Assembly (NCBI GenBank): GCA_028716245.1
Contig: JAQUQW010000002.1
Span: forward strand, 154,514 to 218,513
From: Candidatus Omnitrophota bacterium
Lineage (GTDB): Bacteria > Omnitrophota > Gorgyraeia > Gygaellales > Profunditerraquicolaceae
Direction of reading: 5' to 3'
DNA: 64,000 bases
Shown: positions 10,901 to 43,720 of the stretch, piece by piece
Layout of the letters: the number at the start of each line of letters is the position of its first letter
Position numbering within the stretch: position 1 is the first letter of the stretch
Notes under the pieces: model-generated
Databases searched by the model: none
Told to the model about the DNA's origin: nothing
What the model saw: the letters and a program-made list of their open reading frames with translations, nothing else
Made by a program: the position numbers and the translations under genes

Positions 10901-10950
10901 CTCCTTGCCCACAAGGGCACACCCGCGCAATACCTTATAAGCGCGGGGTG
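10901..10950 (-). repeat. Conserved 5-prime leader element, copy G (upstream of rpsT)
   Basis: Minus-strand sequence CACCCCGCGCTTATAAGGTATTGCGCGGGTGTGCCCTTGTGGGCAAGGAG matches the 6 other copies. Confidence 0.8.
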
Positions 10951-10987
10951 TTTGGTTAATCGAAGGTAATATTATTAGCATAATTAA

Positions 10988-12544
10988 TTGCCCATGTCAA
11001 CAAACAAATATTCCTTAAATAGCCAGAATCACGCGGTTGCCCGTTCAGCCGGGGTGATTAGTTTGGCTACCCTTGCCTCGCGCATCCTGGGCTTTATCCG
11101 GGACATCGTTATCGCCCGGCTTTTTGGGATTTATGTTTATGCCCAGGCTTTTGTCATTGCTTTCCGCATACCCAACCTTTTTCGCGACCTGGTCGGTGAA
11201 GGAGCTTCTAATGCCGCGATTGTCCCGGTCTTAAGCGAATATAACCTTAAGCGCTCCAAAGAAGATTTCTGGGAGCTGGCCAATATCCTGCTTAACCTGC
11301 TGGTGGTTATCTTAAGCGTAATAACCATCCTGGGGATTATTTTTTCTCCGTTGATTGTGCGCCTGATTGCCCCCGGATTTATTGCTTCCCCGGATAAATT
11401 GCAGGCAACCATTAATTTAAACCGGATCATCTTCCCCTATATACTGCTTATCGGCCTGGCGGCTTATGCCATGGCTGTGCTTAACTCGCTGAAGAATTTT
11501 ACGGTTTCGGCATTCGCGCCCTGCCTTTTAAATATTTCGATAATCATCTGCGCCATGCTTTTGGGGGAAGGTATAAAGGGCCTGGCGACCGGAGTTCTGC
11601 TTGGCGGCATCCTGCAGTTGGCAGTGCAGGTTCCGGTTTTATATAAGAAGGGATTGCGCCCAAAACTCAGCTTTTGTTTTAAACATCCCGGGTTAATCGA
11701 GATTAAAAGATTAATGCTCCCCCGGTTGGCCAGCTCCAGCATTTACCAGCTGAATAATTTTGTGGATTCGATTTTCGGTTCATTGGCAGTTGTTGTCGGG
11801 GAAGGAGGGGTAGCCGTGCTTTATTTTGCCTATCGGCTGATCCAGTTTCCCATCGGTATTTTTAGTAATGCCATTGCCCAGGCAATCCTGCCCACGTTCT
11901 CGACGCAGGTATTAGAAGAGAGCCGCGAGAACCTTAAAATCACCCTCTCCTGGGGATTACGCGCCGTTTTTTTTGTGATGTTGCCGATAAGCGCGCTTTT
12001 TATGGTTTTGGCCCAGCCTTTGGTTTTTACTTTTTTTGGCGGCGGCAGGTTTGATTCTCATTCGGGTTTCTTAACTAGCAATGCCTTATTTTTCTATAGT
12101 ATCGGCTTGTGTGCTTACGGGGGTACAAAAATATTACAATGCTGTTTTTTTGCCCTCAGGGATACGGTTACTCCGACAAAAGTAGCCGGCCTTGCCCTGG
12201 TGATGAATATTATTCTTAATACGCTTTTGATGTTTCCGCTTAAGCTCGGCGGCCTGGCTTTGGCCACCTCGATTTCCGGAATAGTTGCTTTTTTCTTCTT
12301 GTTTTTCATTCTGGCCAGGCGCCTGGGGGGATTTGGAGAACCTCAAATATTATTTTCGTTTTTGCGTATTTTTGCCGCCGCCGTTTGTATGGCCGGGGTC
12401 TGTTTCCTGGTGAACCAGGCGTTAAACCTTGGCTGGGCGTTATTTTGCGGGGTTCTATCTTATATTGTTTTTTGTTTTCTTTTTGGCGTAGTTGAGTTAA
12501 AAGAGCTTATACGGAAATCTTTATGGGGAAGGCAGAGAATTTAA
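10988..12544 (+). CDS. murJ: Lipid II flippase MurJ/MviN
   Basis: 518 aa, 14-TM protein. N-terminal SAGVISLATLASRILGFIRDIVIARLFG is the MurJ signature. Confidence 0.85.
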   Translation: MPMSTNKYSLNSQNHAVARSAGVISLATLASRILGFIRDIVIARLFGIYVYAQAFVIAFRIPNLFRDLVGEGASNAAIVPVLSEYNLKRSKEDFWELANILLNLLVVILSVITILGIIFSPLIVRLIAPGFIASPDKLQATINLNRIIFPYILLIGLAAYAMAVLNSLKNFTVSAFAPCLLNISIIICAMLLGEGIKGLATGVLLGGILQLAVQVPVLYKKGLRPKLSFCFKHPGLIEIKRLMLPRLASSSIYQLNNFVDSIFGSLAVVVGEGGVAVLYFAYRLIQFPIGIFSNAIAQAILPTFSTQVLEESRENLKITLSWGLRAVFFVMLPISALFMVLAQPLVFTFFGGGRFDSHSGFLTSNALFFYSIGLCAYGGTKILQCCFFALRDTVTPTKVAGLALVMNIILNTLLMFPLKLGGLALATSISGIVAFFFLFFILARRLGGFGEPQILFSFLRIFAAAVCMAGVCFLVNQALNLGWALFCGVLSYIVFCFLFGVVELKELIRKSLWGRQRI

Positions 12545-13767
12545 GAGAAAAGATTTTATCGGCTCCGGACTCTGCGGGTGTTTATTTGATGCGCGATAGC
12601 CGCGGAGAAGTGCTTTATGTCGGCAAGGCCAATTCACTGAAAAAGAGGCTTTTTAGTTATCTGGCTAAGGATTTAGACGATAAAACAGCGGCCTTAATGT
12701 CTAGGGTAACCAATCTGGAACTTAAGTTATCCGCTAATGAAGCGATGGCCTTATTACTGGAGGCCAGCCTTATCCATAATCTTAAACCCAAATACAATAT
12801 TTCTCTTAAAGATGACAAAAGTTTTCCTTTGGTTAAAATTTCCGGCGAGGAATTTCCGTCAATTTCTATTACGCGTAAAAAAAATGGAGCTGCCGGACAA
12901 TACCTGGGCCCCTATACCAACGCCAAACTCCTGAAAAATGCCCTTAAAATTATCCGGCATAGTTTTGGGTACCGCTCCTGCCGGCGCCTGCCCAAACAGA
13001 GCTGTATTTATTACCGGATCAATCTCTGCCCGGCTCCCTGTATCGGTAAGATCAGCCCTAAAGAATATAAGGCCCTCATTGATAAAATTATTTTTGTTTT
13101 AAAGGGCCGAACGGATTTGTTAATCCGCAAGCTGAATAAATCAATGCGGGATAAATCCCAAACTCAGGATTTTAAGGCAGCCGCCAGGATCCGCGATCAG
13201 ATTATTGTTTTATCTGAAATGTCGGCAGCTCCGGGCAAATTCACCCGCCGGGGGGAATTAGAGGATTTAAAAAACAGGCTGGGTTTGAAAAATCTGCCTA
13301 AAAGGATCGAGGGGTTTGATATTTCCAATATTTCGGGAAAACAATCCGTTGGTTCAATGGTCAGTTTTAAAAATGGCAGCGCGGATAAAAATAACTACCG
13401 CCGTTTTCGCATAAAGACGTTTGCCGGGATTAATGATTATAAAATGCTTGCGGAGGTGGTGGCCCGGCGCTATAGTAGGCTGGCCAAGGAAAAGGCGGCC
13501 CTGCCGGATCTCCTGCTTATCGACGGAGGCAGGGGGCATCTTTTGGCCGCTTCTTCAGAATTAAGAAGGCTCAACCTTGCCATCCCCCTGGCGAGCATTG
13601 CTAAAGAAAAAGAGAATATTTATAGCAGCCGGAAATCTGGCGTTTTAGTTTTTCCTAAAGATACGCCAGCGATAAATTTAATCCGCCGCATACGCGATGA
13701 GGCGCATCGGTTTGCTTTGAGTTATCACCGTATCTTGCGCGGAAAAGAGATATTTAAAAAATGTTAA
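12523..13767 (+). CDS. uvrC: UvrC-like excinuclease subunit (GIY-YIG + UVR + RNase H-like endonuclease domains) lacking the C-terminal (HhH)2 domain
   Basis: GVYLMRDSRGEVLYVGKANSLKKR (GIY-YIG), AAARIRDQI (UVR), IEGFDISNISGKQSVGSMVSF...YRRFRIK (endonuclease domain). Ends at 414 aa. Confidence 0.7.
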   Translation: MGKAENLREKILSAPDSAGVYLMRDSRGEVLYVGKANSLKKRLFSYLAKDLDDKTAALMSRVTNLELKLSANEAMALLLEASLIHNLKPKYNISLKDDKSFPLVKISGEEFPSISITRKKNGAAGQYLGPYTNAKLLKNALKIIRHSFGYRSCRRLPKQSCIYYRINLCPAPCIGKISPKEYKALIDKIIFVLKGRTDLLIRKLNKSMRDKSQTQDFKAAARIRDQIIVLSEMSAAPGKFTRRGELEDLKNRLGLKNLPKRIEGFDISNISGKQSVGSMVSFKNGSADKNNYRRFRIKTFAGINDYKMLAEVVARRYSRLAKEKAALPDLLLIDGGRGHLLAASSELRRLNLAIPLASIAKEKENIYSSRKSGVLVFPKDTPAINLIRRIRDEAHRFALSYHRILRGKEIFKKC

Positions 13768-14753
13768 CCCCGTTAGAGAAAAATCATACCCCAAGAGAAC
13801 ATGGTTCTTTAGCGGGGTTAAATTTTCAAAGGATAAGAGGGACCTTGTTTTATTTAAGCGTATTTTTGTTTTTTGCCGGCCTGCCGCTTATTCTTTCTTT
13901 TGCTTTAGGGTATAAATTTAACGCGCGTACTTTAAAATTCACCAAGACCGGGCTGATTTTTGTCAAGACCCAGCCCGACGGGGCAAAGATATACCTTAAC
14001 GGGAAGCTTCTCCCCCAAAAAAGCCCGGCAAGTATGCAGGAGCTGGTCCCCGGTGTTTATAAAGTTACCATAGAATTAAAGCAGCATTATCCCTGGAAAG
14101 GGGAAGTCGATGTTGAGGCAGGCAAGATCAGCCGCCTGGATAAGGTTATCCTTTTTCCGTTGCGGCCCAACCTGCAGCAGTTAAACCAGGAAAAGTTTTC
14201 TTCTTTTCACATTGATACTGAAAAGAAACTAATTTATTATCTGGATCAGGAAAATAAGGTTGTTTACCGGTCGGATTTAGAGGCAAACAATTTTGAGGAT
14301 GTGGCAAGCTTACCTGAAAAATTCACGCAGATTGCCGGTTGGCAGGTTTCTGAGGATAAAAGAAAACTGTTTGTTTTTAATCCGCATCAGATTAGCGTGG
14401 TTTTTTTTGATAATCAGGGTGATTATGGGTACCCGGATTCCCCCGTGTTCTTGGATTACCCGCAGGAGAAGATCGCCAATGTTTTTTGGCATTCGGACAG
14501 CTACCATTTAATCGTCCTGACCGACAGGCACGTCCAGGTAATTGAATCCAGGGCGAGGGCCTTGCCGGTTAATTTGGTGGAATTAAATAAGGAAGGGGCA
14601 TCGGCATTTTATGACAGCCAAGAAAACGCGCTTTATTTTAGCGACAGCCAAAGAAGCCCCGATGGCAGTTTTTATAATAACCTGTATAAGCTGGATTTAA
14701 GCCCCAGTTTTCTTTTATTGGAAAGGTTGATGAAAAAGAAGGCAAATGGATAA
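13761..14753 (+). CDS. Membrane-anchored PEGA-domain protein
   Basis: One TM segment, then a PEGA-like beta-sandwich (GAKIYLNGKLL...PGVYKVTIELKQHYPW). Confidence 0.45.
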   Translation: MLTPLEKNHTPREHGSLAGLNFQRIRGTLFYLSVFLFFAGLPLILSFALGYKFNARTLKFTKTGLIFVKTQPDGAKIYLNGKLLPQKSPASMQELVPGVYKVTIELKQHYPWKGEVDVEAGKISRLDKVILFPLRPNLQQLNQEKFSSFHIDTEKKLIYYLDQENKVVYRSDLEANNFEDVASLPEKFTQIAGWQVSEDKRKLFVFNPHQISVVFFDNQGDYGYPDSPVFLDYPQEKIANVFWHSDSYHLIVLTDRHVQVIESRARALPVNLVELNKEGASAFYDSQENALYFSDSQRSPDGSFYNNLYKLDLSPSFLLLERLMKKKANG

Positions 14754-16239
14754 GAGAGCATGCTTAAGGCGTATCTTTGAAATTATACCCGGAGGATTAT
14801 CTTGGGGGATAATCATTTCGTTAATCCTGTTGTCTATTGTGCATCCGGTAGCCAGCGCGATAATAATTATTACTTTTGATTTCTATTGGATTATCCGTAC
14901 GGTTTATCTGACCACTCTTTTGATTATGGCCCATCACCGGCTTTTCCGGCTTCGGGGCGAGGACTGGTTGCAGCGTTGTTTGAGTCTGCCCGAGGATAAA
15001 GGCTTCTTGCAGTTATATCAATTGGTCATATTTCCGGTTTATAATGAGGGCCTGGAGGTTTTGCGGCCGTCTTTGTCCTCTTTAAGCAGGAGCCATTATC
15101 CGAAAGAAAAGATCATCGTCGTTATGGCTTTTGAAGAACGCAATATCCACGCGCATGATAATGCTTTAGTTTTGGAAAAAGAATTTGGAGGCCGGTTCGG
15201 CGCCTATTTGTCCACCTTTCATCCTGATGGTTTAGCCGGCGATGCCCGTACCAAAGGGGCAAATGCCACCTGGAGCGCTAAAGCCGCCAGAAAGTTCATC
15301 GATAGCCGCAGGATTGCTTATGAAGATGTCGTCGTTTCCTGTTTTGATGCGGATACCTGTGTTGAACCGGAATATTTCGGCTGCCTGGCCTATCATTTCT
15401 TAACTTCCGATAAGAGGCATCAGGCAAGTTACCAGCCGATGCCGGTCTATAACAATAATATCTGGCAGGCGCCTTCCTTTGCCAGGTTAGTTGAAATCAG
15501 CAGTTCATTTTGCCAGTTGATCGAAAGCATGCGTTTGGAAAAGTTTGTTACCTTCTCCAGCCACAGCATGAGTTTTAAGACGCTGGTGGAGGTGGATTAT
15601 TGGCCGACGAATATGATCTCCGATGATTCGGTGATCTATTGGAAAGGATACTTGCATTATAACGGAGATTACCGGGTGGTCCCGTTATATATTACGGTTT
15701 CCATGGATGTGGCTTACTCCAGCAATATCTGGCGGACCATTGTTGTGCAGTATAAGCAGAAGAGAAGATGGGCCTGGGGGGTGGAGAATTTTCCTTTTGT
15801 CGCAGACGGATTTATAAAAAATAAGAATATTCCGTTTTTCAATAAATTGAGGAGGTTATTCCATCTTTTAGAAAGCCATGTTACCTGGGCCGTCTGGGCG
15901 CTTATCCTGGTGGTGATCGGATACCTGCCCATGCTTTTTGGCGGGGCTTTTTTTAGCCAGATGGCCATTGCTTATAATTTACCGAAAATCACCGGGTTAT
16001 TGTTCCAGTTCACTTTATTGACCAGTTTGACCTGGATATTTTTAAGCTGGACAATTTTACCGCCGCGGCCTAAAGGGGTCAGTTGGCTTAAGAATGTACT
16101 TTTGGTTTTGGAGTGGGTTTTTGTTCCGTTTATAATCTTGATTGTCGGATCCTTTCCGGCAATTGATGCCCAGAGCCGGCTGATGTTTGCCAAATATATG
16201 GAATTTAATCCTACGTTAAAAGGGGATAAGGTGTTATAA
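14746..16239 (+). CDS. GT2-family processive membrane glycosyltransferase (DxD and QxxRW motifs)
   Basis: CFDADT (DxD) and QYKQKRRWAWG (QxxRW). TM helices flank a cytoplasmic GT-A domain, as in cellulose/chitin-synthase-like enzymes. Confidence 0.65.
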   Translation: MDKRACLRRIFEIIPGGLSWGIIISLILLSIVHPVASAIIIITFDFYWIIRTVYLTTLLIMAHHRLFRLRGEDWLQRCLSLPEDKGFLQLYQLVIFPVYNEGLEVLRPSLSSLSRSHYPKEKIIVVMAFEERNIHAHDNALVLEKEFGGRFGAYLSTFHPDGLAGDARTKGANATWSAKAARKFIDSRRIAYEDVVVSCFDADTCVEPEYFGCLAYHFLTSDKRHQASYQPMPVYNNNIWQAPSFARLVEISSSFCQLIESMRLEKFVTFSSHSMSFKTLVEVDYWPTNMISDDSVIYWKGYLHYNGDYRVVPLYITVSMDVAYSSNIWRTIVVQYKQKRRWAWGVENFPFVADGFIKNKNIPFFNKLRRLFHLLESHVTWAVWALILVVIGYLPMLFGGAFFSQMAIAYNLPKITGLLFQFTLLTSLTWIFLSWTILPPRPKGVSWLKNVLLVLEWVFVPFIILIVGSFPAIDAQSRLMFAKYMEFNPTLKGDKVL

Positions 16240-16247
16240 TATTTTTT

Positions 16248-16297
16248 CACTCCGCGCTTATAAGGTATTGCGCGGGTGTGCCCTTGTGGGCAGGAGG
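16248..16297 (+). repeat. Conserved 5-prime leader element, copy A (upstream of pilT), preceded by an extended -10 promoter
   Basis: TGtTATAAT at 16232-16240 predicts a TSS near 16247. The element CACTCCGCGCTTATAAGGTATTGCGCGGGTGTGCCCTTGTGGGCAGGAGG follows and ends 4 nt before the ATG. Confidence 0.8.
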
Positions 16298-16301
16298 AAA
16301 A

Positions 16302-17375
16302 ATGGATATCAAGAAATTAATGCGAGAGATGGTGGACAGGAATGCCTCGGATCTTTTTTACCGGGCCGGAGGCACTCCTCGTCTGCGCATTGACGGCAAG
16401 ATCGTTTCTATGGATACCAGGGTTTTAAGCGTAGAAGAGGTTATGTTTGCCACTGAACAACTGGCCAATACCAAGCAGTTGGAAGTTTTTAGAAACTACC
16501 TGGATGTGGATTTTGCAGTATACCTGGAGGAATTCGGCCGCCGTTTCCGGATAAGTATATTTACGCAAAGAAATTGGCCTTCAATTGTTATTCGAAATGT
16601 GCATAACACTATATCTACATTCGAAGAGCTGAACCTTCCTGCTGAAATATTTAAAAAACTCTCAATGGAAACCCGCGGCCTTGTGCTTATGACCGGAAGT
16701 ATGGGCAGCGGCAAGTCCACCACGATTGCCAGCATGATCGAATATATCAATAATAACTCCAAAAAGCACATCTTAACTGCCGAGGAGCCGATTGAATTTA
16801 CTTTCGAAGATAAACAGTCAATTATAAACCAGCGGGAACTGGGGGTCGATGTTACAACTTATTCTACCGCCCTGCGCGCCTTTACCTTGCAGAGCCCGGA
16901 TGTGATGTTTATCGGCAATATCCGCGATTATGAAACCGTCTCTAGCGCTATAGCTGCTGCGGAGACCGGAGTTTTGGTCTTGAGTACTTTGCACACGATT
17001 AATGCTTCTCAGTCCGTGGAGAGATTGATTAACTTTTTTCCTCCACATCAGCATCAGGAGGTAAGGAATCAATTAGCCTCGCTGCTCAAAGGGGTAATTT
17101 CATTGCGCCTGGTGCCGGCCAAACACGGTATCGGAAGAGTCCCCGCTTATGAGATTATGCTTTTGACTCCCACGATCAGCCGCTTGATCCGCGAAGGGAA
17201 GATTTGGGAGATCCCCGATTTTATCGACGATGGAGCGGTATTCGGCATGCAGTCATTTACCCAGTCCTTGGTTAAATTAGTGCACGAAGGTAAAATAAGT
17301 CCAGAGGATGCCGCGCTTGCTGCGGATAGCCGCGAAGAATTTATGCTGGCTTACAAGGGGATCAAGAAATCTTAA
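16302..17375 (+). CDS. pilT: Type IV pilus retraction ATPase PilT
   Basis: Walker A GSMGSGKST, Walker B region, His box (LSTLHT), PilT-specific AIRNLIRE-like RLIREGK. Confidence 0.85.
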   Translation: MDIKKLMREMVDRNASDLFYRAGGTPRLRIDGKIVSMDTRVLSVEEVMFATEQLANTKQLEVFRNYLDVDFAVYLEEFGRRFRISIFTQRNWPSIVIRNVHNTISTFEELNLPAEIFKKLSMETRGLVLMTGSMGSGKSTTIASMIEYINNNSKKHILTAEEPIEFTFEDKQSIINQRELGVDVTTYSTALRAFTLQSPDVMFIGNIRDYETVSSAIAAAETGVLVLSTLHTINASQSVERLINFFPPHQHQEVRNQLASLLKGVISLRLVPAKHGIGRVPAYEIMLLTPTISRLIREGKIWEIPDFIDDGAVFGMQSFTQSLVKLVHEGKISPEDAALAADSREEFMLAYKGIKKS

Positions 17376-17380
17376 TAAAA

Positions 17381-17410
17381 CAGTTTCCTCTTCAGCTTGG
17401 AAACTGTTTC
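17381..17410 (+). terminator. Rho-independent terminator after pilT
   Basis: Stem CAGTTTCC/GGAAACTG, 10-nt loop, followed by TTTC. Confidence 0.5.
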
Positions 17411-17437
17411 GAAGCTAATCGGGAAATGGGGTCTAAG

Positions 17438-17489
17438 ACACCCCGCGCTTATAAGGTATTGCGCGGGTGTGCCCCTTGCGGGCAAGGAG
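17438..17489 (+). repeat. Conserved 5-prime leader element, copy B (upstream of prfB)
   Basis: ACACCCCGCGCTTATAAGGTATTGCGCGGGTGTGCCCCTTGCGGGCAAGGAG. Confidence 0.8.
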
Positions 17490-17495
17490 ATAATT

Positions 17496-18594
17496 ATGCT
17501 AGAAGAAATTAAAAGTAAGCTTAGTGAAATCGGAGTAAGGATTGAGAACCTACGAGGTTATCTTTGACGTTGCCGACAAAAAAAAGCGGATAGATATTTT
17601 ATCCGGCCAGATGTCTTCTGAAGGATTCTGGAACAACACCGAACAGTCTACCAGGATAGTCAGGGAATTAAAGGATCTTAAAGCCACGGTTGAGCCATGG
17701 GAGTTAGCCAATAAAAAATACCAGGAGTTGGCCGAACTTATTCCCTTGCTTAAAGAAAATGATCAGGATCTGGTTTTAGATTTAACCAGCAATGCCACGG
17801 CCCTTGCGTCGATAATCGATAAATTGGAATTCCAGGTGCTTTTAGGCGGCAGGCTGGATAAGAATAGCACAATCTTAAGTATCAATGCCGGAGCCGGGGG
17901 CACGGAATCCTGCGATTGGGCAGGGATGCTCTTTAGGATGTACAGCCGTTTTGCGGAAAGGCATGGCTACAGCGTAAAGACAATTGATATTCTTGCCGGA
18001 GAAGAAGCGGGGATTAAAAATATAACTATTTTAATCGAAGGCCCGTATGCCTTTGGTTATTTAAAGGCAGAGCGCGGGGTGCACCGGTTAGTGCGCATTT
18101 CGCCTTTTGACGCTAATAAACGCAGGCACACCTCTTTTGCTTCCGTAGATGTGATCCCGGAAATAGAGGAAGAGCTGGATATAAAAATCGAGGAGAAAGA
18201 CCTGCGTATCGATGTTTACCGGTCCAAGGGGGCCGGAGGCCAAAGCGTCAACACCACGGATTCAGCGGTGAGGATTACCCATATACCGACCGGGATCGTG
18301 GCGCAGTGCCAGAATGAGCGTTCGCAGTTTCAAAATAAACAGACGGCCTTAAAAATACTTAAGGCCCGTATTTATGAAGCCCAACAGGCGAAGAAGCAGG
18401 AAGAATTAAAACAGCAGGATGCGGATAAAAAGAAAATTGAGTGGGGCAGCCAGATCCGCTCTTATGTTTTGCATCCTTATAATTTGGTTAAAGACCACCG
18501 CACGGAGTTTGAAACCGGAGATAGTCAGAAAGTTTTAGACGGCGGCCTGGATGAATTTATCGAGGCTTTTCTTAAATATAGTGCCAATAAGTAG
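17496..18594 (+). CDS. prfB: Peptide chain release factor 2 with programmed +1 ribosomal frameshift (frame 0 17496-17567, frame +1 from 17566)
   Basis: Frame 0 MLEEIKSKLSEIGVRIENLRGYL stops at CTT TGA C (17562-17568), preceded by the SD-like GAGG. The +1 frame continues DVADKKKRIDIL... through SPF, GGQ (YRSKGAGGQSVNTT) and the RF2 C-terminus. Confidence 0.9.
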
Positions 18595-18600
18595 CTTGAG

Positions 18601-23024: not shown

Positions 23025-24420
23025 AAAATTTTTGATTTTTTTGCTGCTCTTGTCGCTTGGCGGCTGTACTGCGGTTAAAAAACCGGATTTAAACCGCTGG
23101 AACAGCCTGTCGGAATTAGGGCCGTTTAAAAAAAATGAGCGGGTTTTAATTTTAGCTCCGCATCCCGATGATGAAGCAATTGCTTGCGCCGGGGTTATCC
23201 AAAAGGCGCTTGCAGCCGGAGCCAAGGTGAAAGTGGCTTACTTGACCAACGGTGATCATAATGAGCTGGCGTTTATCGTCTATGAAAAAAGAATAACCGT
23301 CCGCCAGGGTGAGTTTATCCACATGGGGCAGGTGCGCCAGAAAGAAGCAATTAAAGCGATGAAATCTTTAGGACTTTCTGAAAATGACCTTGTTTTTTTG
23401 GGATACCCTGATTTTGGCACCTTTGAAATCTTTTGCAATTATTGGCGCAGCCAGCGGCCGTTTCGTGATCGCCTGACCCGCATATCCTATGTTCCCTACA
23501 AAAACAATCCTTCTTACGGGGCGCCATATTACGGAGAAAGTATTTTAAACGACCTGGTCAGCCAGATTTTAGATTACAAACCGGATAAAATATTTGTTTC
23601 GCATCCAGCCGATGTTAACGTGGATCATAAAGCATTATATCTGTTTCTCCAGGTTGCTTTGAGCGATTTAGAGACTAAGATCCTTAAGCCTAGAGTTTAT
23701 CCATATCTGGTGCATTGTCTGGGCTGGCCCAAGCCGAGTTATTATCATCCGGAACTAGAACTGTATCCGCCGCATAAATTCATCGGCTCCAAGATTAATT
23801 GGCAACGCTTGGATTTGAGTCTTAAGGAACTGGATAAAAAATATCAGGCAATCCTTTTTTATAAAAGCCAGACGCAATCCAGCGCTTTTTATTTATTATC
23901 TTTTGCCAGGAAAAATGAGCTCTTTGGTGATTATCCGTTTTTAGAGCTGACCCCAAGAGCAAGATCAAAAGATAAGCCCGTCGCTTATCCGGATACTCTA
24001 AAAACATTTGGAATGACGCAGCCCGCGCAAGATTCCGAAGAATCCGATGCGGCCGAAGATCGGGGGCTGGTGAGCTACGCGCAGGAAAATAATAATTTTA
24101 TTCTCCGCGTAGATACGCCTAAACAGCTTAGCAGCAGGTTTGGGGTAATGCTTTATATCTTTGGATACGCCAAGAATACCGCCTTTGCCCGGATGCCTAA
24201 AATTCGGATTATTACTGCGGGTAAGAAATTCAAGGTATTCAGCGCCGAAGATAAAGTTGTCAATTCCGGGGTTATCTTGAATCTTGGTAAAAACTATTTA
24301 ATTTTAAGAGTTCCGCTTAAACTTCTAGGGGAACCGGATTACCTGCTTACATCGCTTAAGGTTTACCATGGTAATCTATCCGTTAACGCTATAGGTTACC
24401 GTAAGATAAAGATTAAATAG
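23014..24420 (+). CDS. PIG-L/LmbE-family deacetylase lipoprotein with a C-terminal domain of unknown function
   Basis: Lipobox LSLGGC. VLILAPHPDDEAIACAG...LTNGDH is the PIG-L zinc-deacetylase signature. Confidence 0.6.
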   Translation: MRNRKFLIFLLLLSLGGCTAVKKPDLNRWNSLSELGPFKKNERVLILAPHPDDEAIACAGVIQKALAAGAKVKVAYLTNGDHNELAFIVYEKRITVRQGEFIHMGQVRQKEAIKAMKSLGLSENDLVFLGYPDFGTFEIFCNYWRSQRPFRDRLTRISYVPYKNNPSYGAPYYGESILNDLVSQILDYKPDKIFVSHPADVNVDHKALYLFLQVALSDLETKILKPRVYPYLVHCLGWPKPSYYHPELELYPPHKFIGSKINWQRLDLSLKELDKKYQAILFYKSQTQSSAFYLLSFARKNELFGDYPFLELTPRARSKDKPVAYPDTLKTFGMTQPAQDSEESDAAEDRGLVSYAQENNNFILRVDTPKQLSSRFGVMLYIFGYAKNTAFARMPKIRIITAGKKFKVFSAEDKVVNSGVILNLGKNYLILRVPLKLLGEPDYLLTSLKVYHGNLSVNAIGYRKIKIK

Positions 24421-24472
24421 CACCCCGCACTTATAAGGAATTACGCGGGTATAGCCTTGTGGCCAAGGAGGG
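24421..24472 (+). repeat. Conserved 5-prime leader element, copy C (most diverged)
   Basis: CACCCCGCACTTATAAGGAATTACGCGGGTATAGCCTTGTGGCCAAGGAGGG, 3 nt before the ATG at 24476. Confidence 0.7.
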
Positions 24473-25004: not shown

Positions 25005-25916
25005 ATGGATACTAAAAAAGTTCGTAAAAGCGCCGGCCGTTTTGCGGCATGGCTGGGATTAAATATATGTTCTTTGATTGTTAGGGTTATTCCTGCCGGC
25101 TGCCTCTATGCTTTTGCCAAAAACATTGCTGTTTTGGCTTATTTTTTTGCGAAAAAACAAAAAAAGATCGCTTTGGACAGCTTGAGCATTGCCTTTGGCA
25201 GGGAAAAATCCCGCCGGGAAATTGAAGAAATAGCCAGAAATTGTTTTATCTATATGGCTAAAAGCGCCGTTGAGCTGATGTTCCTTTTTGACAAGCCCCA
25301 GGCTTTAAGAGAACTGGTAGAAATTCAGGGCCGCCAAAATTTAGATAAAGCATTAGCTAACGGCCGCGGCGCGATTTTAGTCAGCGCGCATTTTGGTAAT
25401 TTTCCGCTTCTTTTAGGAAGGCTGGCGCTGGAGGGATACAAAGCCGGCGGAATTATGCGGCCGATGCGCGATGCCAAAGTGGAGAAGATTTTTCTGGAGA
25501 AAAGGGACAAGTTTGGCGTGAAGACAATTTACAGCCAGCCGCGTAATGAATGCGTAAATAATACCATTGCCGCTTTGCGCAATAATGAATTGGTTTTTAT
25601 CCCGATTGACCAGAATTTTGGGACCGGAGGGGTGTTCGTGAATTTTTTCGGAGAAAAAGCGGCAACGGCTACCGGCCCGGTAATTTTTGCGCAGAGGACA
25701 AAAGCTGCGCTTATTCCGTGTTTTATCCTCAGGCAGCCTGGTGATAAGCACAAGATAATTTTTGAAGCGGAATTGGAATTAAAAGAGGGCAAGGGCTCCC
25801 AGGATACCGTCTTGATAAATATTCAGAGGCTCACCGATATTATCGAGTCTTATATACGCAGATATCCTGCGGAGTGGGGTTGGATCCACCGCAGATGGAA
25901 GAGTAAGCCCAGTTAA
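25005..25916 (+). CDS. Lipid A biosynthesis (Kdo)2-lipid IVA acyltransferase, LpxL/HtrB family
   Basis: 303 aa. N-terminal TM, HX4D-like acyltransferase region (VSAHFGNFP) and IPIDQN. Confidence 0.65.
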   Translation: MDTKKVRKSAGRFAAWLGLNICSLIVRVIPAGCLYAFAKNIAVLAYFFAKKQKKIALDSLSIAFGREKSRREIEEIARNCFIYMAKSAVELMFLFDKPQALRELVEIQGRQNLDKALANGRGAILVSAHFGNFPLLLGRLALEGYKAGGIMRPMRDAKVEKIFLEKRDKFGVKTIYSQPRNECVNNTIAALRNNELVFIPIDQNFGTGGVFVNFFGEKAATATGPVIFAQRTKAALIPCFILRQPGDKHKIIFEAELELKEGKGSQDTVLINIQRLTDIIESYIRRYPAEWGWIHRRWKSKPS

Positions 25917-25929
25917 AGGAGGTGTTCTG

Positions 25930-26154
25930 ATGGCACAGGAAGAGAAAAAATGCTGTGGTACAGAGGAGAAATGTTGTGATCCTAAAAAAATGTTTTCTAC
26001 GCTGCTTAAGGTTATTTTAGGTTTGGTATTTTTAGTTTTAGGGGGATTGGCAATTTATAAATTTTGGCCGGATCTTCTTACGATTATTAAAGGCGGAGTG
26101 GGTTTATTCCTGCTTTTAGCCGGCGTAATTACTTTAGCCATAGCTAAGGAGTAA
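25930..26154 (+). CDS. Small membrane protein with an N-terminal CC-x5-CC motif
   Basis: 74 aa. KKCCGTEEKCCD followed by two TM helices. Confidence 0.35.
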   Translation: MAQEEKKCCGTEEKCCDPKKMFSTLLKVILGLVFLVLGGLAIYKFWPDLLTIIKGGVGLFLLLAGVITLAIAKE

Positions 26155-29024: not shown

Positions 29025-29070
29025 GTTTCCCTTGACAGTCGGGTTAATCGGTAATATTATAAAAATAAGC

Positions 29071-29721
29071 ATGAAGAAAAGTTTGCAATTACTTGGATGC
29101 GCGGTTACGTTGTTATTTCTGGCAGGGTGTTTTTCAACCAAGGCGCATTCTGTATTAGATAAGTCTTTGATGGGCCAGCCTCTTAGCCCATACACCGGAG
29201 CCCACGCTAAAATCGCACTTAACGATTTTGAATTAAAAACCTCCGGGATAGACGCGCAGGCCGGTTTGGCTCTGAAAGAATATTTAATCAGTATTTTAAA
29301 TACTACCAAGCGTTTTGTGGTCGTTGTCCCGCAAGAGGCGGATTTAATCATCACCGTTGGAGTTATTGAGTTTATACCGGAGAGCTCAGGCGGAAAATCC
29401 GGTTTAGCCGGAGGTGGAAGCAGCGCCAGTAGTTTTATGGGAGGCCTGTTGGGGGAGGTTTTAAACAAAGCAAATATGCAATTGAGTTTGCGCATTATTG
29501 ACCGGGTCAGTTCAACGGTGCTAAGCAGCCGGGACATCCAGAGCCAGGCGGTGGAAAATCCCGGGAAGAAAACAAAAACTCCCCGCGATAAGGTTTTTAA
29601 GGCAGGTTTAAGCGAATATGCCGGTAAGCCTATGGGTAAGGTTATCCATGATTGCTTGATTGAGGCAGGCCGTTATATCGCCCAAAACGTACCATTAAGT
29701 TATTATAACACCCCGCGCTAA
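29071..29721 (+). CDS. Lipoprotein, possibly CsgG-like
   Basis: Lipobox LAGC. The fold assignment is weak. Its stop codon lies inside leader element copy D. Confidence 0.3.
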   Translation: MKKSLQLLGCAVTLLFLAGCFSTKAHSVLDKSLMGQPLSPYTGAHAKIALNDFELKTSGIDAQAGLALKEYLISILNTTKRFVVVVPQEADLIITVGVIEFIPESSGGKSGLAGGGSSASSFMGGLLGEVLNKANMQLSLRIIDRVSSTVLSSRDIQSQAVENPGKKTKTPRDKVFKAGLSEYAGKPMGKVIHDCLIEAGRYIAQNVPLSYYNTPR

Positions 29722-29756
29722 TAAGGTATTGCGCGGGTGTGCCCTTTTGGGCAAAA
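29708..29756 (+). repeat. Conserved 5-prime leader element, copy D
   Basis: ACACCCCGCGCTAATAAGGTATTGCGCGGGTGTGCCCTTTTGGGCAAAA. SD AAGGTG lies downstream. Confidence 0.75.
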
Positions 29757-29773
29757 ATTAAGGTGTAGTAGAT

Positions 29774-29854
29774 ATGGGAAAGAGAAAACGCAGGGGAAAA
29801 CTTAACTGGCGTTCCAAGAAAGCTAATAAAGGCAGAAAACCTAATTTAGGTTAA
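29774..29854 (+). CDS. Small basic peptide, candidate ribosomal protein bTHX-like
   Basis: 26 aa, MGKRKRRGKLNWRSKKANKGRKPNLG. Similar pattern to Thermus Thx (GKGDRRTRRGKIWRG..GK.RP). Sits directly behind a leader element like rpsT. Too short for the ORF track. Confidence 0.35.
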   Translation: MGKRKRRGKLNWRSKKANKGRKPNLG

Positions 29855-34940: not shown

Positions 34941-34949
34941 GAATTTACT

Positions 34950-36748: not shown

Positions 36749-36758
36749 ATTTCCTTTC

Positions 36759-39214: not shown

Positions 39215-39219
39215 AAGCG

Positions 39220-40016: not shown

Positions 40017-40052
40017 GGCTTAGCACGACGTTAAGATTCAGAAGGCTAATCT

Positions 40053-41321
40053 ATGGATCCTAAAATAATATCATTATCAATTTTCGTCATTTCTTATGTG
40101 TTATTTATTGCCCTTCCCCAAAAGCGTAGCTTGGTTGCTTTAGGAGGAGGGTTTCTTTTGATTTTAACCCAAACCATATCGCCAAAAGAAGCATTTTCGG
40201 CGATCAATTGGAATGTTATGGGTATATTTGTAGGCACCCTGATTATTGCCGATGTTTTTATGCAAAGCCGGGTTCCTGCTTATATAGCAGAGGTGATTGT
40301 TGATAAAGCTAAGAACATTACTTGGGCAATCTTATTTATCTGCCTGTTGACCGGATTTATTTCGGCATTTGTCGAAAATGTGGCTACGGTATTAATTGTT
40401 GCTCCTATCGCTCTGGCTTTAGCCAAGAAGCTTAAAATAAACCCCGCTAAAATGATGATTGCCATTGCCGTCTCAAGCAATCTCCAAGGCGCGGCTACTT
40501 TGATCGGGGATCCGCCGAGTATGCTGCTGGGAGGTTTTGCCAGGATGAATTTCGGTGATTTCTTTATTTACAAAGGCAAGCCAAGTATTTTCTTTGCCGT
40601 AGAACTGGGGGCTTTGGTGTCTTTTTTTGTGCTTTATTTTATATTCAGGAGACATAGCGAAAAAACACAGCTTATTCCGGTTGAGAAAGTAAGGTCGTGG
40701 GTGCCGACGATTTTGTTGGTAAGTCTGGTTATTTTATTGGCGGCATCTTCATTCTTTGATAAGAGTTTTAGTTATTTAGCCGGCCAGATTTGCATGGTTT
40801 TTGGGATTATTGCTTTGGCCTGGGAGAAGTTCATCAATAAAGCTTCCATTAGGGCCGGCCTTAAAAAACTTGATTGGGACACCACGTTTTTTCTTATGGG
40901 TATTTTTGTCATTGTCGGCGGGATCACGCTTACCGGGTGGATCCAGGTCCTGGCCAATTATTTGGCCAGCCTTGTTGGTTCAAATATATTTCTGGGCTAT
41001 ACCGCAATCGTGTTTCTTTCGGTAATCCTTTCGGCTTTTATCGACAATGTCCCGTTCTTGGCGGCGATGCTGCCGGTGGCGATAATTATGTCTAATAAAT
41101 TGCAAATTAATCCTGCGTTGTTTCTTTTTGGTTTGCTTATCGGGGCTAGCTTAGGCGGCAATATTACGCCAATTGGGGCCTCGGCTAACATTGTCGCCTG
41201 CGGCTTGCTTAAAAAAGAAGGCTATCCGGTTAAATTCAGCGATTTTATGAAAATAGGAATTCCTTTTACCCTTACCGCAGTAACCGCCGCTTATTTATTG
41301 ATCTGGTTTATCTGGAGATAA
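40053..41321 (+). CDS. ArsB/NhaD-superfamily permease (paralog of 26187-27548)
   Basis: 422 aa, approximately 11-12 TM. Shares NLQGAATLIGDP-type motifs with the paralog. Confidence 0.6.
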   Translation: MDPKIISLSIFVISYVLFIALPQKRSLVALGGGFLLILTQTISPKEAFSAINWNVMGIFVGTLIIADVFMQSRVPAYIAEVIVDKAKNITWAILFICLLTGFISAFVENVATVLIVAPIALALAKKLKINPAKMMIAIAVSSNLQGAATLIGDPPSMLLGGFARMNFGDFFIYKGKPSIFFAVELGALVSFFVLYFIFRRHSEKTQLIPVEKVRSWVPTILLVSLVILLAASSFFDKSFSYLAGQICMVFGIIALAWEKFINKASIRAGLKKLDWDTTFFLMGIFVIVGGITLTGWIQVLANYLASLVGSNIFLGYTAIVFLSVILSAFIDNVPFLAAMLPVAIIMSNKLQINPALFLFGLLIGASLGGNITPIGASANIVACGLLKKEGYPVKFSDFMKIGIPFTLTAVTAAYLLIWFIWR

Positions 41322-41328
41322 TTTTTTC

Positions 41329-41357
41329 TTGACAAATGATACTAATGTGGTATCATT
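41329..41357 (+). promoter_or_regulatory. Sigma70-like promoter TTGACA-N16-TATCAT containing a 7-7 inverted repeat between the hexamers
   Basis: ATGATAC-N7-GTATCAT at 41336-41356. The predicted TSS lands near the first base of leader element copy E. Confidence 0.5.
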
Positions 41358-41367
41358 AATTATAGTA

Positions 41368-41418
41368 ACACCCCGCGCTTATAAGGTATTGCGCGGGTGT
41401 GCCTTACTGGCAAGGAGG
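41368..41418 (+). repeat. Conserved 5-prime leader element, copy E
   Basis: ACACCCCGCGCTTATAAGGTATTGCGCGGGTGTGCCTTACTGGCAAGGAGG, followed by the ATG at 41428 of a short ORF. Confidence 0.8.
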
Positions 41419-41553
41419 TGATCAGGTATGGATATAACGGTTAAGTATATGCTTAGGCCGGTAGCGCATTGTAAAGAGGGTTGCAGTAGATTGTCCCGGG
41501 CAAGACGATAAACTGCCCAATGCGTTTTTATAAAATATCATAGGGGTATATTT

Positions 41554-41946
41554 ATGAAACTGATTACCAGAGATACCGATTATGCTTTGCGGGCGCTTTG
41601 TTATATGTCAAAGCAGCAGGATGTTGTAGCGGTAGATGAGTTAGTTAAAAAGCTTGGCGTGCCGCGGCCGTTTATGCGCAAGATTCTTCAACAGTTAAAT
41701 AAAGAAAGGATCTTGGAATCTTATAAAGGACAAGGGGGAGGTTTTAAGCTTAAAGTTCCCCCTGCCAAAATTTTTATAATTAAGATAATGCGTATTTTTC
41801 AGGGACAAGTTGGCCTAAACGGGTGTTTTCTGAAAAAAGATATCTGCCCGGATAAAGGTAAATGTGTTTTAAGAAAAAAAATACACGCGATTGAAGATGA
41901 CCTGGTTGACCGGCTTAAACAGATCAATGTCGCTTCTTTAATTTAA
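41554..41946 (+). CDS. Rrf2-family transcriptional regulator (NsrR/IscR-like) with C-terminal Cys ligands
   Basis: TDYALRALCYMS wHTH, three Cys (C..C....C) near the C-terminus. Lies upstream of hcp. Confidence 0.8.
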   Translation: MKLITRDTDYALRALCYMSKQQDVVAVDELVKKLGVPRPFMRKILQQLNKERILESYKGQGGGFKLKVPPAKIFIIKIMRIFQGQVGLNGCFLKKDICPDKGKCVLRKKIHAIEDDLVDRLKQINVASLI

Positions 41947-41957
41947 AGGGTAATTAT

Positions 41958-42167
41958 ATGGCTAGAAGGAAGATCATTAGTATTGATGAAAAGAAATGTA
42001 ATGGGTGTGGCCTGTGTATTCATAATTGTCTTGAGGGGGTAATCCAGATCATTGATAATAAAGCCCGGATAATTAGCGATTTATCTTGCGATGGTTTGGG
42101 TGCTTGTCTTGGGCATTGTCCGCAGGGAGCAATCAGTATAGAGGAGAGAAAACCTGATGTTTCATAA
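41958..42167 (+). CDS. 2x[4Fe-4S] ferredoxin
   Basis: CNGCGLCIHNC and CDGLGACLGHC cluster motifs in 69 aa. Confidence 0.8.
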   Translation: MARRKIISIDEKKCNGCGLCIHNCLEGVIQIIDNKARIISDLSCDGLGACLGHCPQGAISIEERKPDVS

Positions 42168-42354
42168 GTGTCCGGGTCAGGATAAGCGCCTTGCCAAAGC
42201 AGAAAACATAACTTGTTCTAATTGCGGGTAGGCAGCGGAGATTCTTTCCGATGAGCTTAAAGTGCGCTGCCCGCAGTGTAGAGATTTAATCTGCAAGGAG
42301 AGATTGCCTTCCTGCGTGGATTGGTGCAGGGCAGCTAAAAAGTGTATTGGATAG
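42157..42354 (+). CDS. Cys-rich zinc-ribbon-like small ORF interrupted by an in-frame UAG (42229-42231)
   Basis: MFHKCPGQDKRLAKAENITCSNCG-TAG-AAEILSDELKVRCPQCRDLICKERLPSCVDWCRAAKKCIG. CxxC knuckles lie on both sides of the stop in one frame. Confidence 0.35.
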
Positions 42355-42364
42355 GAGGTGCTCA

Positions 42365-43660
42365 ATGTTTTGTTATCAATGCGAACAGACGGCCGGCGGT
42401 ACAGGCTGCACAAAGTTGGGGGTCTGCGGCAAAAATGAGGATATCCAGAGCCTGCAGGATATGCTTTTATTCGGTTTAAAAGGTATTGCTGCTTATGCTT
42501 ATCACGCGCGGCAATTAGGCGCCCGCGATGAAGAAGTGGATGCTTTTATGCACGGAGGGCTTTTTAAAACCGTAACCAATGTTAGTTTTGACCTGAATCA
42601 GTATCTGGAATTGGTTTTAAAATGCGGAGCGATGAATTATAAAACTATGGAGATGCTGGATAAGGCGCATACGCAAAAGTTCGGCAATCCGGTTCCTACC
42701 GCGGTAGAAACCGGCATCAAAGCCGGGCCGGCAATTTTAGTCACCGGGCATGATTTATTGGATCTTTATGAATTGCTTAAACAGTCTGAAGGGGCCGGAG
42801 TAAATATTTATACGCACAGTGAAATGCTACCCGCGCACGGTTATCCGCAGCTTAAGAAGTTTAAGCATCTGGCGGGCAACTATGGCGGGGCCTGGCAGGA
42901 GCAGAAAAAAGAATTCAATGCCTTTAGCGGGGCAATACTGGCAACGACCAACTGTGTATTAATTCCGCCGGAAAATTCCTATCTGGACAGGTTATTTACG
43001 ATAGGCATAACCGGCGTAGCGGGAGCAATACATTTGAAATCCCGGGACTTTAAATCTTTAATTGCAAAAGCTAAATCCCTGCCGCCTTTACCGGAGGCTC
43101 CCGGTAAGAAGATCTGGACAGGTTTTCACCATACGGCAATTTTAGGATTAGCGGATAAAATCGTCAGCTTAGTTAAAGCCGGCAAGATTAAGCATTTTTT
43201 CTTAATCGGCGGTTGTGACGGCGCAAAACCCGGGCGTAATTATTACACCGAGTTTGCGGAAAGAGTGCCCAAGGATTGTGTAATCCTTACGCTTGCCTGC
43301 GGTAAATACCGGTTTAACAAACTTGAATTCGGGGATATCGAAGGGATGCCCAGATTAATTGACATTGGCCAGTGCAATAATGCTTACTCCGCGATTCAGG
43401 TAGCCGTGGCTTTAGCCGATGCTTTTGGCTGTAGTGTAAATGACCTGCCTCTGACCCTGGTGTTATCTTGGTTTGAGCAAAAAGCAGTTGCTATCCTGCT
43501 TACTTTGTTGTACCTTAATATTAAGGGCATCTATATCGGGCCAACCCCGCCTGCCTTTATAAGTAAAAATGTTTTTAAGCTTTTACAGGAGAAATTTGAC
43601 TTAAGGCTGATCTCTACGCCGGATGAAGACTTAAAGCAAATATTAAAGAAATTAAAATAG
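42365..43660 (+). CDS. hcp: Hybrid cluster protein / hydroxylamine reductase, short class
   Basis: MFCYQCEQTAGGTGCTKLGVCGK N-terminal cubane motif, HDLLDLYELL, CGKYRFNKLEFGDIEGMPRLIDIGQCNNAYSA hybrid-cluster ligands. Approximately 110 aa shorter than E. coli Hcp. Confidence 0.9.
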   Translation: MFCYQCEQTAGGTGCTKLGVCGKNEDIQSLQDMLLFGLKGIAAYAYHARQLGARDEEVDAFMHGGLFKTVTNVSFDLNQYLELVLKCGAMNYKTMEMLDKAHTQKFGNPVPTAVETGIKAGPAILVTGHDLLDLYELLKQSEGAGVNIYTHSEMLPAHGYPQLKKFKHLAGNYGGAWQEQKKEFNAFSGAILATTNCVLIPPENSYLDRLFTIGITGVAGAIHLKSRDFKSLIAKAKSLPPLPEAPGKKIWTGFHHTAILGLADKIVSLVKAGKIKHFFLIGGCDGAKPGRNYYTEFAERVPKDCVILTLACGKYRFNKLEFGDIEGMPRLIDIGQCNNAYSAIQVAVALADAFGCSVNDLPLTLVLSWFEQKAVAILLTLLYLNIKGIYIGPTPPAFISKNVFKLLQEKFDLRLISTPDEDLKQILKKLK

Positions 43661-43668
43661 GATAACAA

Positions 43669-43720
43669 TACCCCGCGCTTACAAGGAATTGCGCGGGTAT
43701 GCCCTTGTGGGCAAAGGAGG
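43669..43720 (+). repeat. Conserved 5-prime leader element, copy F
   Basis: TACCCCGCGCTTACAAGGAATTGCGCGGGTATGCCCTTGTGGGCAAAGGAGG, 5 nt before the ATG at 43726. Confidence 0.8.

Follow-up and report, generated by a model that had tools for sequence, protein, structure and literature searches.

Why should genes as different as those for ribosomal protein S20 (rpsT), a PilT-type ATPase (pilT) and release factor RF2 (prfB) carry the same short structured segment immediately ahead of their start codons? The question is raised by a 64-kb stretch of a Candidatus Omnitrophota genome (contig JAQUQW010000002.1 of assembly GCA_028716245.1, positions 154,514 to 218,513; hereafter the window), in which a unit of two hairpins recurs seven times at the Shine-Dalgarno (SD) sequences of unrelated genes. 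We think it fairly probable that the unit is a non-autonomous, Omnitrophota-specific mobile repeat that lands at the 5' edge of SD motifs and is tolerated there or mildly useful as an insulator. The observations behind this reading are the repeat family itself and its restriction to one phylum, the polymorphism of filled and empty sites, the insertion point, the orientation of the copies, their nesting and tandem arrangement, and the covariation of their stems.

Architecture of the unit and its copies in the window

The six plus-strand copies form the largest repeat family found by repeat search in the window, and a minus-strand copy was added by a search with the core pattern (10915-10928). 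A covariance model (R1) was built from 84 copies with the SD bases deliberately excluded; applied to the whole window with filters off, it returned exactly seven copies (54-76 bits; E 1e-12 to 1e-18), and all remaining matches scored 17.6 bits or less, six of them being the opposite strand of the seven copies. A broader covariance model (R2) recovered the same seven. Pfam assigned the downstream genes to S20, T2SSE/PilT ATPase, RF2 (PCRF + RF-1), PF04008 and, after a 27-codon open reading frame (ORF), Rrf2, and gave no family for a 26-amino-acid peptide or a 113-amino-acid membrane protein. Repeat, pattern and covariance searches and Pfam agree with the original prediction on the seven copies, their coordinates and orientation, the consensus, the two hairpins and the downstream genes. 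The copies are as follows.

Copy G, 10906-10951, minus strand: rpsT 5' leader; R1 76 bits; SD AGGAG at 10901-10905, ATG at 10893-10895
Copy A, 16247-16292, plus strand: start of the pilT leader; 68.9 bits; GGAGG at 16293-16297, ATG at 16302
Copy B, 17438-17484, plus strand: gap between pilT and prfB; 66.6 bits; AGGAG at 17485-17489, ATG at 17496
Copy C, 24420-24465, plus strand: between a PIG-L deacetylase gene, whose stop TAG ends at 24420, and a PF04008 gene; 54.1 bits; AGGAGGG at 24466-24472
Copy D, 29708-29753, plus strand: precedes a 26-codon basic ORF; 71.9 bits; AAGGTG at 29760-29765
Copy E, 41368-41412, plus strand: precedes a 27-codon ORF, after which comes the Rrf2 gene; 63.4 bits; AGGAGG at 41413-41418, ATG at 41428
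Copy F, 43668-43713, plus strand: between hcp (prismane; stop at 43660) and the gene for the 113-amino-acid membrane protein; 70.6 bits; AAGGAGG at 43714-43720, ATG at 43726

The unit is about 46-47 nt long and consists of hairpin 1, hairpin 2 directly after it and a terminal A. Hairpin 1 has 9 bp, one bulged C and a 12-nt loop, which reads TTATAAGG(T/A)ATT in the window; its family consensus is (C/U)AC-C-CCGCGC / GCGCGG-GU(G/A) with the loop UUAUAAGG(A/U)AUU, and the best position for the bulged C is after CAC. In copy F the closing pair of hairpin 1 is altered on both sides (U-A for C-G). Hairpin 2 has 5 bp and mostly a TTGT loop in the window copies; family-wide, its stem is 5-6 bp long and free in sequence. 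The start codon lies 9-20 nt past hairpin 2 in all seven window copies, and AGGAG/GGAGG lies 0-1 nt past it in six of the seven, copy D having its AAGGTG 6 nt downstream.

Hairpin 2 of copy F contains the first ATG (43699-43701) of an ORF listed as 43699-44067, for which the SD-preceded ATG at 43726 is the likelier start; automatic annotation could therefore mis-set starts at such copies. A CsgG-like ORF (29032-29721) enters copy D by 14 nt and stops on the TAA of the hairpin-1 loop (29719-29721), as it does at the same site in two other species, and the insertion of copy D seems to have replaced the last codons and the stop of the CsgG-like gene.

Gain and loss among relatives

A metagenome scan seeded with RF2 of the window yielded 20 contigs syntenic with the window over approximately 7.6-28 kb (70-80% nucleotide identity; about 250 kb). 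Compared loci and contigs are labelled by L-numbers. With both models these 20 contigs held two copies in total, compared with seven in the 64-kb window: L082 has a decayed one at rpsT, and L078 has a variant at pilT. In a relative at 88% identity, units stand at sites G, A and B as in the window, differing from their orthologues at 2-4 of 46 positions, about the rate of the flanks, and site C is empty.

The state of each site varied from relative to relative. The rpsT site (G) is filled in three genomes (L006 among them, as well as L082, whose copy is elsewhere termed decayed), decayed in two (L096, in which hairpin 2 alone survives, and L085) and empty in L078 and L080. The pilT site (A) has the same unit in L006, a covarying variant in L078, and a different hairpin or none in other relatives. 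The prfB site (B) is filled in L055 and cleanly empty in L078, and 19 other syntenic relatives have no copy there. Site D is filled in L021 and L051, the two species in which the CsgG-like ORF likewise ends in the loop. A further site, H, is empty in the window and in L078 and filled in L021, where the unit sits exactly between ttaaaaaaa and (A)GGAGGTG. The filled and empty junctions read as follows.

prfB site: empty in L078, gttctaat directly followed by aggagaaagatatg; filled in the window, ggtctaag, unit, aggagataattatg
Site C: empty in L055 and L078, attaaatag directly followed by ggggagggtatatg; filled in the window, attaaatag, unit, aggagggcgtatg
Site H: empty in the window, gttaaa directly followed by ggaggtgttctgatg; filled in L021, ttaaaaaaa, unit, aggaggtgttttatg
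Site H as a window feature, 25913-25922, plus strand: unoccupied target (gttaaa directly before GGAGG) ahead of a 74-codon ORF at 25930; the L021 unit is at 3933-3978

At all sites compared, filled and empty states have a clearly orthologous SD at an orthologous distance from the start codon. Because empty sites already carry it, the SD is resident and the insert is made up of hairpin 1, hairpin 2 and the A; the original prediction had counted the SD as part of the element, and this has to be corrected to a unit inserted at the 5' edge of the SD. No target duplication was seen in four filled/empty comparisons. Presence and absence across syntenic relatives form the pattern of a mobile repeat, and they speak against the earlier proposal of a control cassette for a co-regulated set of genes, since relatives with 81-88% identical PrfB and conserved synteny do without the unit at the same genes. 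A randomly placed repeat of the miniature inverted-repeat transposable element (MITE) kind had been named as the finding that would overturn the prediction: the gain-and-loss dynamics are indeed MITE-like, but orientation and position are far from random.

At the rpsT leader, L081 and L090 carry other, unrelated GC-rich insertions of 40-110 nt (aligned to window 10900-10990), which suggests that this leader is an insertion hotspot.

Distribution and census

To delimit the family, an exact-pattern scan with CCGCNCTNANAAGGNATTNCGCGGGT was made over 185,579 species, with one genome per species. It returned 76 loci in 41 species-level assemblies, nearly all of them Candidatus Omnitrophota metagenome-assembled genomes (MAGs); a few MAGs were labelled "uncultured Planctomycetales", and the genes flanking their matches were near-identical to those of Omnitrophota MAGs. 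Among the 185,579 species genomes there was no match outside these 41 assemblies, nor was the unit matched in viral contigs, and both models found zero copies in 11 prfB control loci from outside the Omnitrophota. The family is restricted to Omnitrophota.

Rfam 15 had no family matching the unit at gathering thresholds in the window or at E ≤ 10 in 16200-17520, and searches of the full-text literature, including those for Omnitrophota or Omnitrophica hairpins, repeats and RNA motifs and for intercistronic repeats with an SD, found no description of it, so the earlier statement that no named leader motif has this sequence holds. The principal Omnitrophota genomics paper ran Rfam only.

The R2 census counted 105 copies across the examined loci. 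They fall into subfamilies whose hairpin-1 stems differ by compensated changes (e.g., CACC-UGGCGC/GCGCCA-GUG and CACC-CGACGC/GCGUCG-GUG), all of which retain the CACC/GGUG base and the UUA..GGA..AUU loop. Similar repeat families were sought in five syntenic relatives, with only chance-level matches.

Gene context

An SD and a start codon follow approximately 74 of the 105 copies, and a start codon with no clear SD follows about 12, so that about 86 stand directly before a start; about eight others are upstream members of tandem or nested arrays. GGAG or GAGG begins 0-4 nt past hairpin 2 in 79 copies. The upstream gene is nearly always on the same strand, its stop often lies 0-20 nt ahead of the unit, and the unit spans the gap from that stop to the next SD in four of the seven window copies and in most copies elsewhere. 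No antisense copy was found in about 90 mRNA contexts. The census and the inspection of the seven window copies bear out a real two-hairpin element, sense to its gene, which abuts the SD of unrelated genes, as had been predicted. The variety of these genes is wide, with 71 Pfam families among 53 downstream proteins, including EF-Tu, DnaK, S3, L20, glutamine synthetase, Amt, P-II, PEPCK and S-adenosylhomocysteine (SAH) hydrolase, and, by N-terminal sequence, also S16, L35, L6, L7/L12 and the ATP synthase c subunit.

Five copies adjoin tRNA genes. One lies between tRNA-Leu and tRNA-Gly and abuts the mature tRNA-Gly 5' end (GCG, then GGAGUAG), and four, at one orthologous site in four species, adjoin a tRNA-Thr gene of the opposite strand at its 3' end, where TGGAGAC is the complement of the tRNA end. 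Among the orphan copies, which lack GGAG after them, those in L027 (990-1090), L040 (7609-7700) and L057 (1564-1660) lie beside intrinsic terminators of opposite-strand genes, with an A run between, and are antisense to every neighbouring gene.

Orientation by replication strand was considered as the cause of the sense bias. The C-rich strand carries nine of 75 copies: the rpsT copy and eight others, seven of which are orphans or tRNA-Thr 3' end copies. Since the rpsT copy is nevertheless in sense orientation to its gene, replication-strand orientation was rejected, with the caveat that skew and gene direction are confounded. The mean GC skew on the unit-bearing strand of 8-kb Omnitrophota loci is 0.11.

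The insertion point

The unit abuts GGAG at 0-2 nt even where 100 to more than 600 nt of noncoding DNA lie upstream. The same nucleotide has been hit more than once: at site C the window and L021 hold different subfamilies while closer relatives are empty, at the pilT site the window and L078 likewise hold different subfamilies, and in both cases the insertions are independent. The two kinds of tRNA site, neither of them in an mRNA, also have GGAG right after the unit. Abutting direct tandems before one SD occur in L017, L025, L026 and L069, an arrangement that repeated hits on the same site would produce. Whole units are also nested in the hairpin-1 loop of other units, always just 5' of (A)ATT (L004, L042, L051 and, twice, L054); the SAH-hydrolase gene has a nested unit in L054 and a simple copy in its orthologue in L031. 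The loop in question, UAUAAGGA (UAAGGA), resembles an extended SD.

On the 5' side, TA(A/G) ends exactly at the edge of the unit in 39 of 105 copies (37%), compared with 4.5% per position in the flanks, and in 27 of those 39 it does not terminate a long ORF. Taken together, the spacing, the recurrence, the tRNA sites, the tandems, the nesting and the TA(A/G) edge suggest that the unit inserts into sites resembling TA(A/G)-GGAG, the dash marking the junction.

Folded structure and accessibility of the SD

In an alignment of 98 copies, 11 of 14 base pairs were changed on both sides (hairpin 2, 5/5; hairpin 1, 6/9), with 77 doubly changed cells as opposed to 13.4 in column shuffles; 96.5% of cells were paired, versus 32-65% with the partner slid. 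Compensation also separates orthologous copies, hairpin 2 of site D changing from UGCCC/GGGCA to UGUCU/AGACA in L051. Conservation is highest in the loop, whose core UUA..GGA/U..AUU persists while the stems covary; 60 of the 105 loops have GGA, some 26 nt ahead of the GGA of the SD, and 37 have GGU.

The minimum-energy fold consists of the two hairpins in most window copies. In copies A and C, CACUCC can instead pair with the SD; this fold was rejected as a general feature, as copies with a covarying hairpin 2 lose the complementarity. Over 69 copies, the predicted unpaired probability from SD to AUG was 0.546 with the unit in sense orientation, 0.526 with it deleted, 0.549 with it in antisense orientation and 0.475 with it shuffled. 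By these values the unit is self-contained and does not occlude the ribosome-binding site (RBS). Occlusion of the SD was rejected as the cause of the orientation bias, sense and antisense being equal in predicted accessibility.

Transcript starts and promoters

The original prediction placed the element at the extreme 5' end of mRNAs. Three promoter-like sites in the window bear on this.

Extended -10 of pilT (TGTTATAAT), 16232-16240, plus strand: near-invariant in aligned relatives, one position varying in three
Promoter-like site TTGACA-16-TATCAT with TG, 41329-41356, plus strand: 11/12 match, 11 nt before copy E; consensus match only
Promoter-like site TTGACA-18-AATAAT, 10971-11000, minus strand: 11/12 match, about 20 nt before copy G; consensus match only

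The pilT site, which lies about 7 nt ahead of copy A, is conserved in all syntenic relatives; copy A therefore probably begins the pilT mRNA, with the transcription start at or beside its first base. Promoter-like and terminator sites in the scans were no commoner than in shuffled sequence, and in 98 copies the information content at -60 to -5 was about zero, with no favoured position for -10-like hexamers, which indicates that the unit is usually intercistronic and not a marker of transcript starts. The claim is thus upheld as probable for copy A and backed by an 11/12 promoter match for copy E, but it does not extend to the family: most copies are intercistronic, with A, E and G as the exceptions in the window.

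Intrinsic termination was examined as well. Hairpin 2 is followed by AGGAG and not by a T-rich run, no window copy was listed as a sense-strand terminator, and the sole listed terminator overlapping a copy (43686-43671) is on the opposite strand of copy F.

The pilT leaders of L080, L082, L084, L085 and L086, which lack the unit, have a different, 13-bp hairpin right after TGTTATAAT (e.g., ACAATCGCCTGCC-TATA-GGCAGGCGATTGT; aligned to window 16240-16300), whose sequence varies between relatives and whose stem stays paired. These other hairpins indicate that a 5'-terminal hairpin is a recurring feature of pilT mRNA, supplied by different sequences.

Proposed mechanism and points against it

As a mobile repeat, the unit would insert just 5' of an (A)GGAG already present, leaving no evident duplication of the target and often splitting a TA(A/G)-GGAG sequence, and AAGGAG would be restored by its 3' ...CA-A end. 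Genes carry this target motif on their sense strand, so copies would come to stand in sense orientation right ahead of start codons, whether the unit opens a leader or separates two cistrons. The UAAGGA of the loop would mimic this target, and units would become nested in the loops of older copies. The mobiliser would be a putative trans-acting recombinase, possibly one that acts on single-stranded hairpin DNA. Once inserted, the unit would be transcribed with the gene, its two self-contained hairpins leaving the SD as accessible as before. The preservation of hairpin 2 by compensatory evolution implies that the RNA form is at least tolerated, and the unit would probably shield the downstream cistron as a structural insulator or a protective 5' cap. 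With a loop that resembles the SD, hairpin 1 may be the conserved recognition part, be it recognised by the recombinase, through pairing with the target or by an RNA-binding factor, and hairpin 2 appears to be a structure-only module maintained beside the SD. Beyond the observations set out above, we infer that insertion is targeted and not selectively retained, that the loop mimics or guides to the target, that a recombinase acts in trans and that expression benefits.

A fuller version, in which the unit homes to the SD motif with its loop (UAAGGA / TCCTTA) as guide or mimic, inserts at RBSs across the whole genome, regenerates the SD with its own 3' end and is kept as a portable insulator or stabiliser, is put forward tentatively, as a possibility with the odds somewhat against it. 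We know of no described transposition that is aimed at RBSs by a 46-nt element.

Several points weigh against a repeat aimed at the SD. The adjacency to the SD could reflect selection, only beneficial insertions having been fixed, and not targeting. The junctions of nested units, between AAGG and AATT, differ in register by two bases from those at RBSs, which lie before GGAG; no single cut rule that fits both could be derived. TA(A/G) also occurs at 7-10% of ordinary RBSs, in a comparison that rests on crude gene calls. About seven of the 105 copies are orphans with no GGAG after them (L027, L040, L057, L044, L071, L029:315). Covariation was counted in an alignment fitted to the model and on related sequences. 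Predicted accessibility with the unit exceeds that of the deletion by a marginal amount (p = 0.04) and is no different when the unit is antisense. Finally, tblastn with IS200 TnpA and RAYT (YafM) found no match in the 828 kb of Omnitrophota DNA searched, which is a small sample and a biased one.

Alternative explanations

The strongest competitor, though an unlikely one, is a purely selfish repeat of REP or MITE type with neither an RNA role nor a target preference, for which the gap between stop and SD would simply be the sole harmless place in compact operons. Gain and loss between relatives, tandems, nesting and a burst in one lineage are what it predicts; orthologous copies diverge at approximately the flank rate (2-4/46 at 88% identity), and decayed copies exist. 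Such a repeat would have no reason to stand 0-2 nt from the SD where hundreds of nucleotides of noncoding DNA are free, or to insert independently at the same nucleotide. The lack of antisense copies in mRNA contexts, where folding predicts no antisense penalty, also counts against it, as does hairpin 2, which is compensated between orthologues and outlives hairpin 1.

We give little credence to a cis-regulatory leader cassette, in which the hairpin-1 loop would bind a dedicated RNA-binding protein (e.g., a CsrA-like one) that co-regulates translation or stability. It would account for a loop core that is the most conserved part while the stems covary, for the frequent loop GGA (60/105) some 26 nt ahead of the SD GGA, for the strictly sense orientation and for the many highly expressed housekeeping genes downstream (EF-Tu, DnaK, S3, S16, S20, L20, L35, L7/L12). 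The same genes in syntenic relatives, however, lack the unit, which is hence no conserved part of their regulation, and copy number differs sharply between close species. Moreover, the loop has GGU and not GGA in 37 of 105 copies, stem conservation goes far beyond what binding of the loop by a protein would require, and copies occur between tRNA genes and antisense beside a tRNA. No CsrA homologue was found in the 828 kb, a weak test.

Highly improbable is a role as RNA processing "punctuation", the unit being cut by an endonuclease or by itself to free cistrons with a protected 5' hairpin on the mRNA or tRNA. The intercistronic position fits, including that between tRNA-Leu and tRNA-Gly with the mature tRNA 5' end abutting, as do the conserved loop and bulge and the other 5'-terminal hairpins at the same place in the pilT leaders of relatives; but Rfam has no ribozyme or processing family for it even at E ≤ 10, no candidate pseudoknot or conserved unpaired core was found besides the loop, and relatives dispense with the unit. 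The idea that the unit sets the 5' ends of transcripts, as a promoter or promoter-proximal element, can practically be set aside: copy A after its conserved extended -10 and copies E and G with 11/12 matches 11-20 nt upstream would suit it, whereas the absence of information and of a favoured -10-like position at -60 to -5 in 98 copies, the many copies that begin 0-7 nt past an upstream stop, and promoter-like sites at shuffle level do not.

Comparison with known repeats and leader elements

By analogy, the unit appears to work most like REP/REPIN sequences and MIRUs, yet it departs from the defining features of each; it is a dispersed intergenic hairpin repeat with an unusual and possibly targeted RBS position. 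REP/REPIN sequences are short, GC-rich, bulged imperfect palindromes, presumed to move in the form of single-stranded hairpins and to leave no target duplication (PMC3337134). Like them, the unit is extragenic, high in copy number, lineage-specific and clustered, its numbers differ between close relatives, and it has a 9-bp GC-rich bulged stem, with seven copies in 64 kb, all intergenic. Unlike REPINs, which are inverted doublets found in both orientations and typically after genes, it combines two different hairpins, always in sense orientation, at the 5' edge of the SD; the covariance models found no inverted partner on either strand, and neighbouring copies are direct tandems or same-orientation nests.

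MIRUs enter operons at the starts of genes and affect expression little (PMC12548453). The unit resembles them in being intercistronic, sense-oriented and insertion-polymorphic between species. A MIRU, however, has a small ORF coupled to the downstream start (-4 spacing), forms variable-number tandem repeats and sits at the start codon, whereas the unit is a double hairpin before the SD and belongs to a different phylum. The 46-nt unit has no ORF and no start codon, the SD and start lying outside it; one frame contains the loop stop, and this TAA ends an upstream ORF only in copies of the site D type.

IS200/IS605 elements move by "peel and paste", with orientation-specific insertion beside a 4-5 nt motif, no duplication and hairpin ends, and IS1397/ISKpn1 insert into REP loops. 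The unit may be likened to both in its motif-adjacent, oriented insertion, its hairpins and its insertion into repeat loops; in contrast to IS200/IS605, no associated transposase gene was found for it in the 828 kb searched, and it is far smaller than an insertion sequence. Correia/NEMIS, ERIC, BOX and RUP elements are MITEs that measure 100-150 bp, have terminal inverted repeats, duplicate their target (TA in the case of Correia) and are found in both orientations. The unit shares with them the character of a non-autonomous repeat in mRNAs, whose stability or processing those elements can alter, but its ends (CACC... and ...GGGCAA) are not inverted repeats of each other and there is no target-site duplication.

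Among leader elements, the 5' stabiliser stem-loops and SD-like stabilisers of the ompA, ermC and aprE leaders and the cryIIIA STAB-SD are single-gene features. The unit is like them a stable hairpin 5' of the RBS, with an SD-like UAAGGA in its loop, and unlike them a dispersed repeat. CsrA/RsmA targets, with a GGA in a hairpin loop and another in the SD, may be compared with it: 60 of 105 copies have the loop GGA, about 26 nt from that of the SD, and an SD follows in about 75% of copies. The differences are that a third of the loops read GGU, that the stem sequence is conserved and that the unit is absent from orthologous genes in relatives.

Implications

Omnitrophota are uncultured, ultra-small bacteria, and to our knowledge almost nothing is known of their gene expression. 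The unit is an easily recognised, phylum-specific marker ahead of many of their most highly expressed genes. Its gain and loss between close species amounts to a natural experiment on the effect that a 46-nt structured insert ahead of the SD has on translation and mRNA decay, and offers a handle for finding the mobilising enzyme. If insertion is truly aimed at RBSs, this would be a new target rule for bacterial mobile DNA and the unit a natural portable RBS insulator, a device that synthetic biologists build by hand. Annotation pipelines should mask the unit, refrain from calling it a regulatory leader and avoid internal starts such as the ATG at 43699.

Other observations

The 26-codon, very basic ORF downstream of copy D (29774-29851; MGKRKRRGKLNWRSKKANKGRKPNLG) is conserved in three species (the window, L021 and L051), with the unit upstream in all three. 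Its assignment to ribosomal protein bTHX, which its product may resemble, was set aside for want of Pfam or NCBIfam support. A second basic mini-ORF (MPCGKKRKRQKIKTHKRKK...) occurs in L029 and L039, also with the unit upstream.

The window has two divergent tRNA genes, at 1896-1978 (minus strand) and 2045-2117 (plus strand), which are its sole Rfam matches. Its GC skew is positive in all 4-kb bins (0.03-0.15), and its genes lie mostly on the plus strand. Downstream of copy B, prfB is split into a 23-codon ORF (17496-17567) and a main ORF (17542-18594), with the same split in L055, a pattern in keeping with the programmed +1 frameshift usual for RF2.

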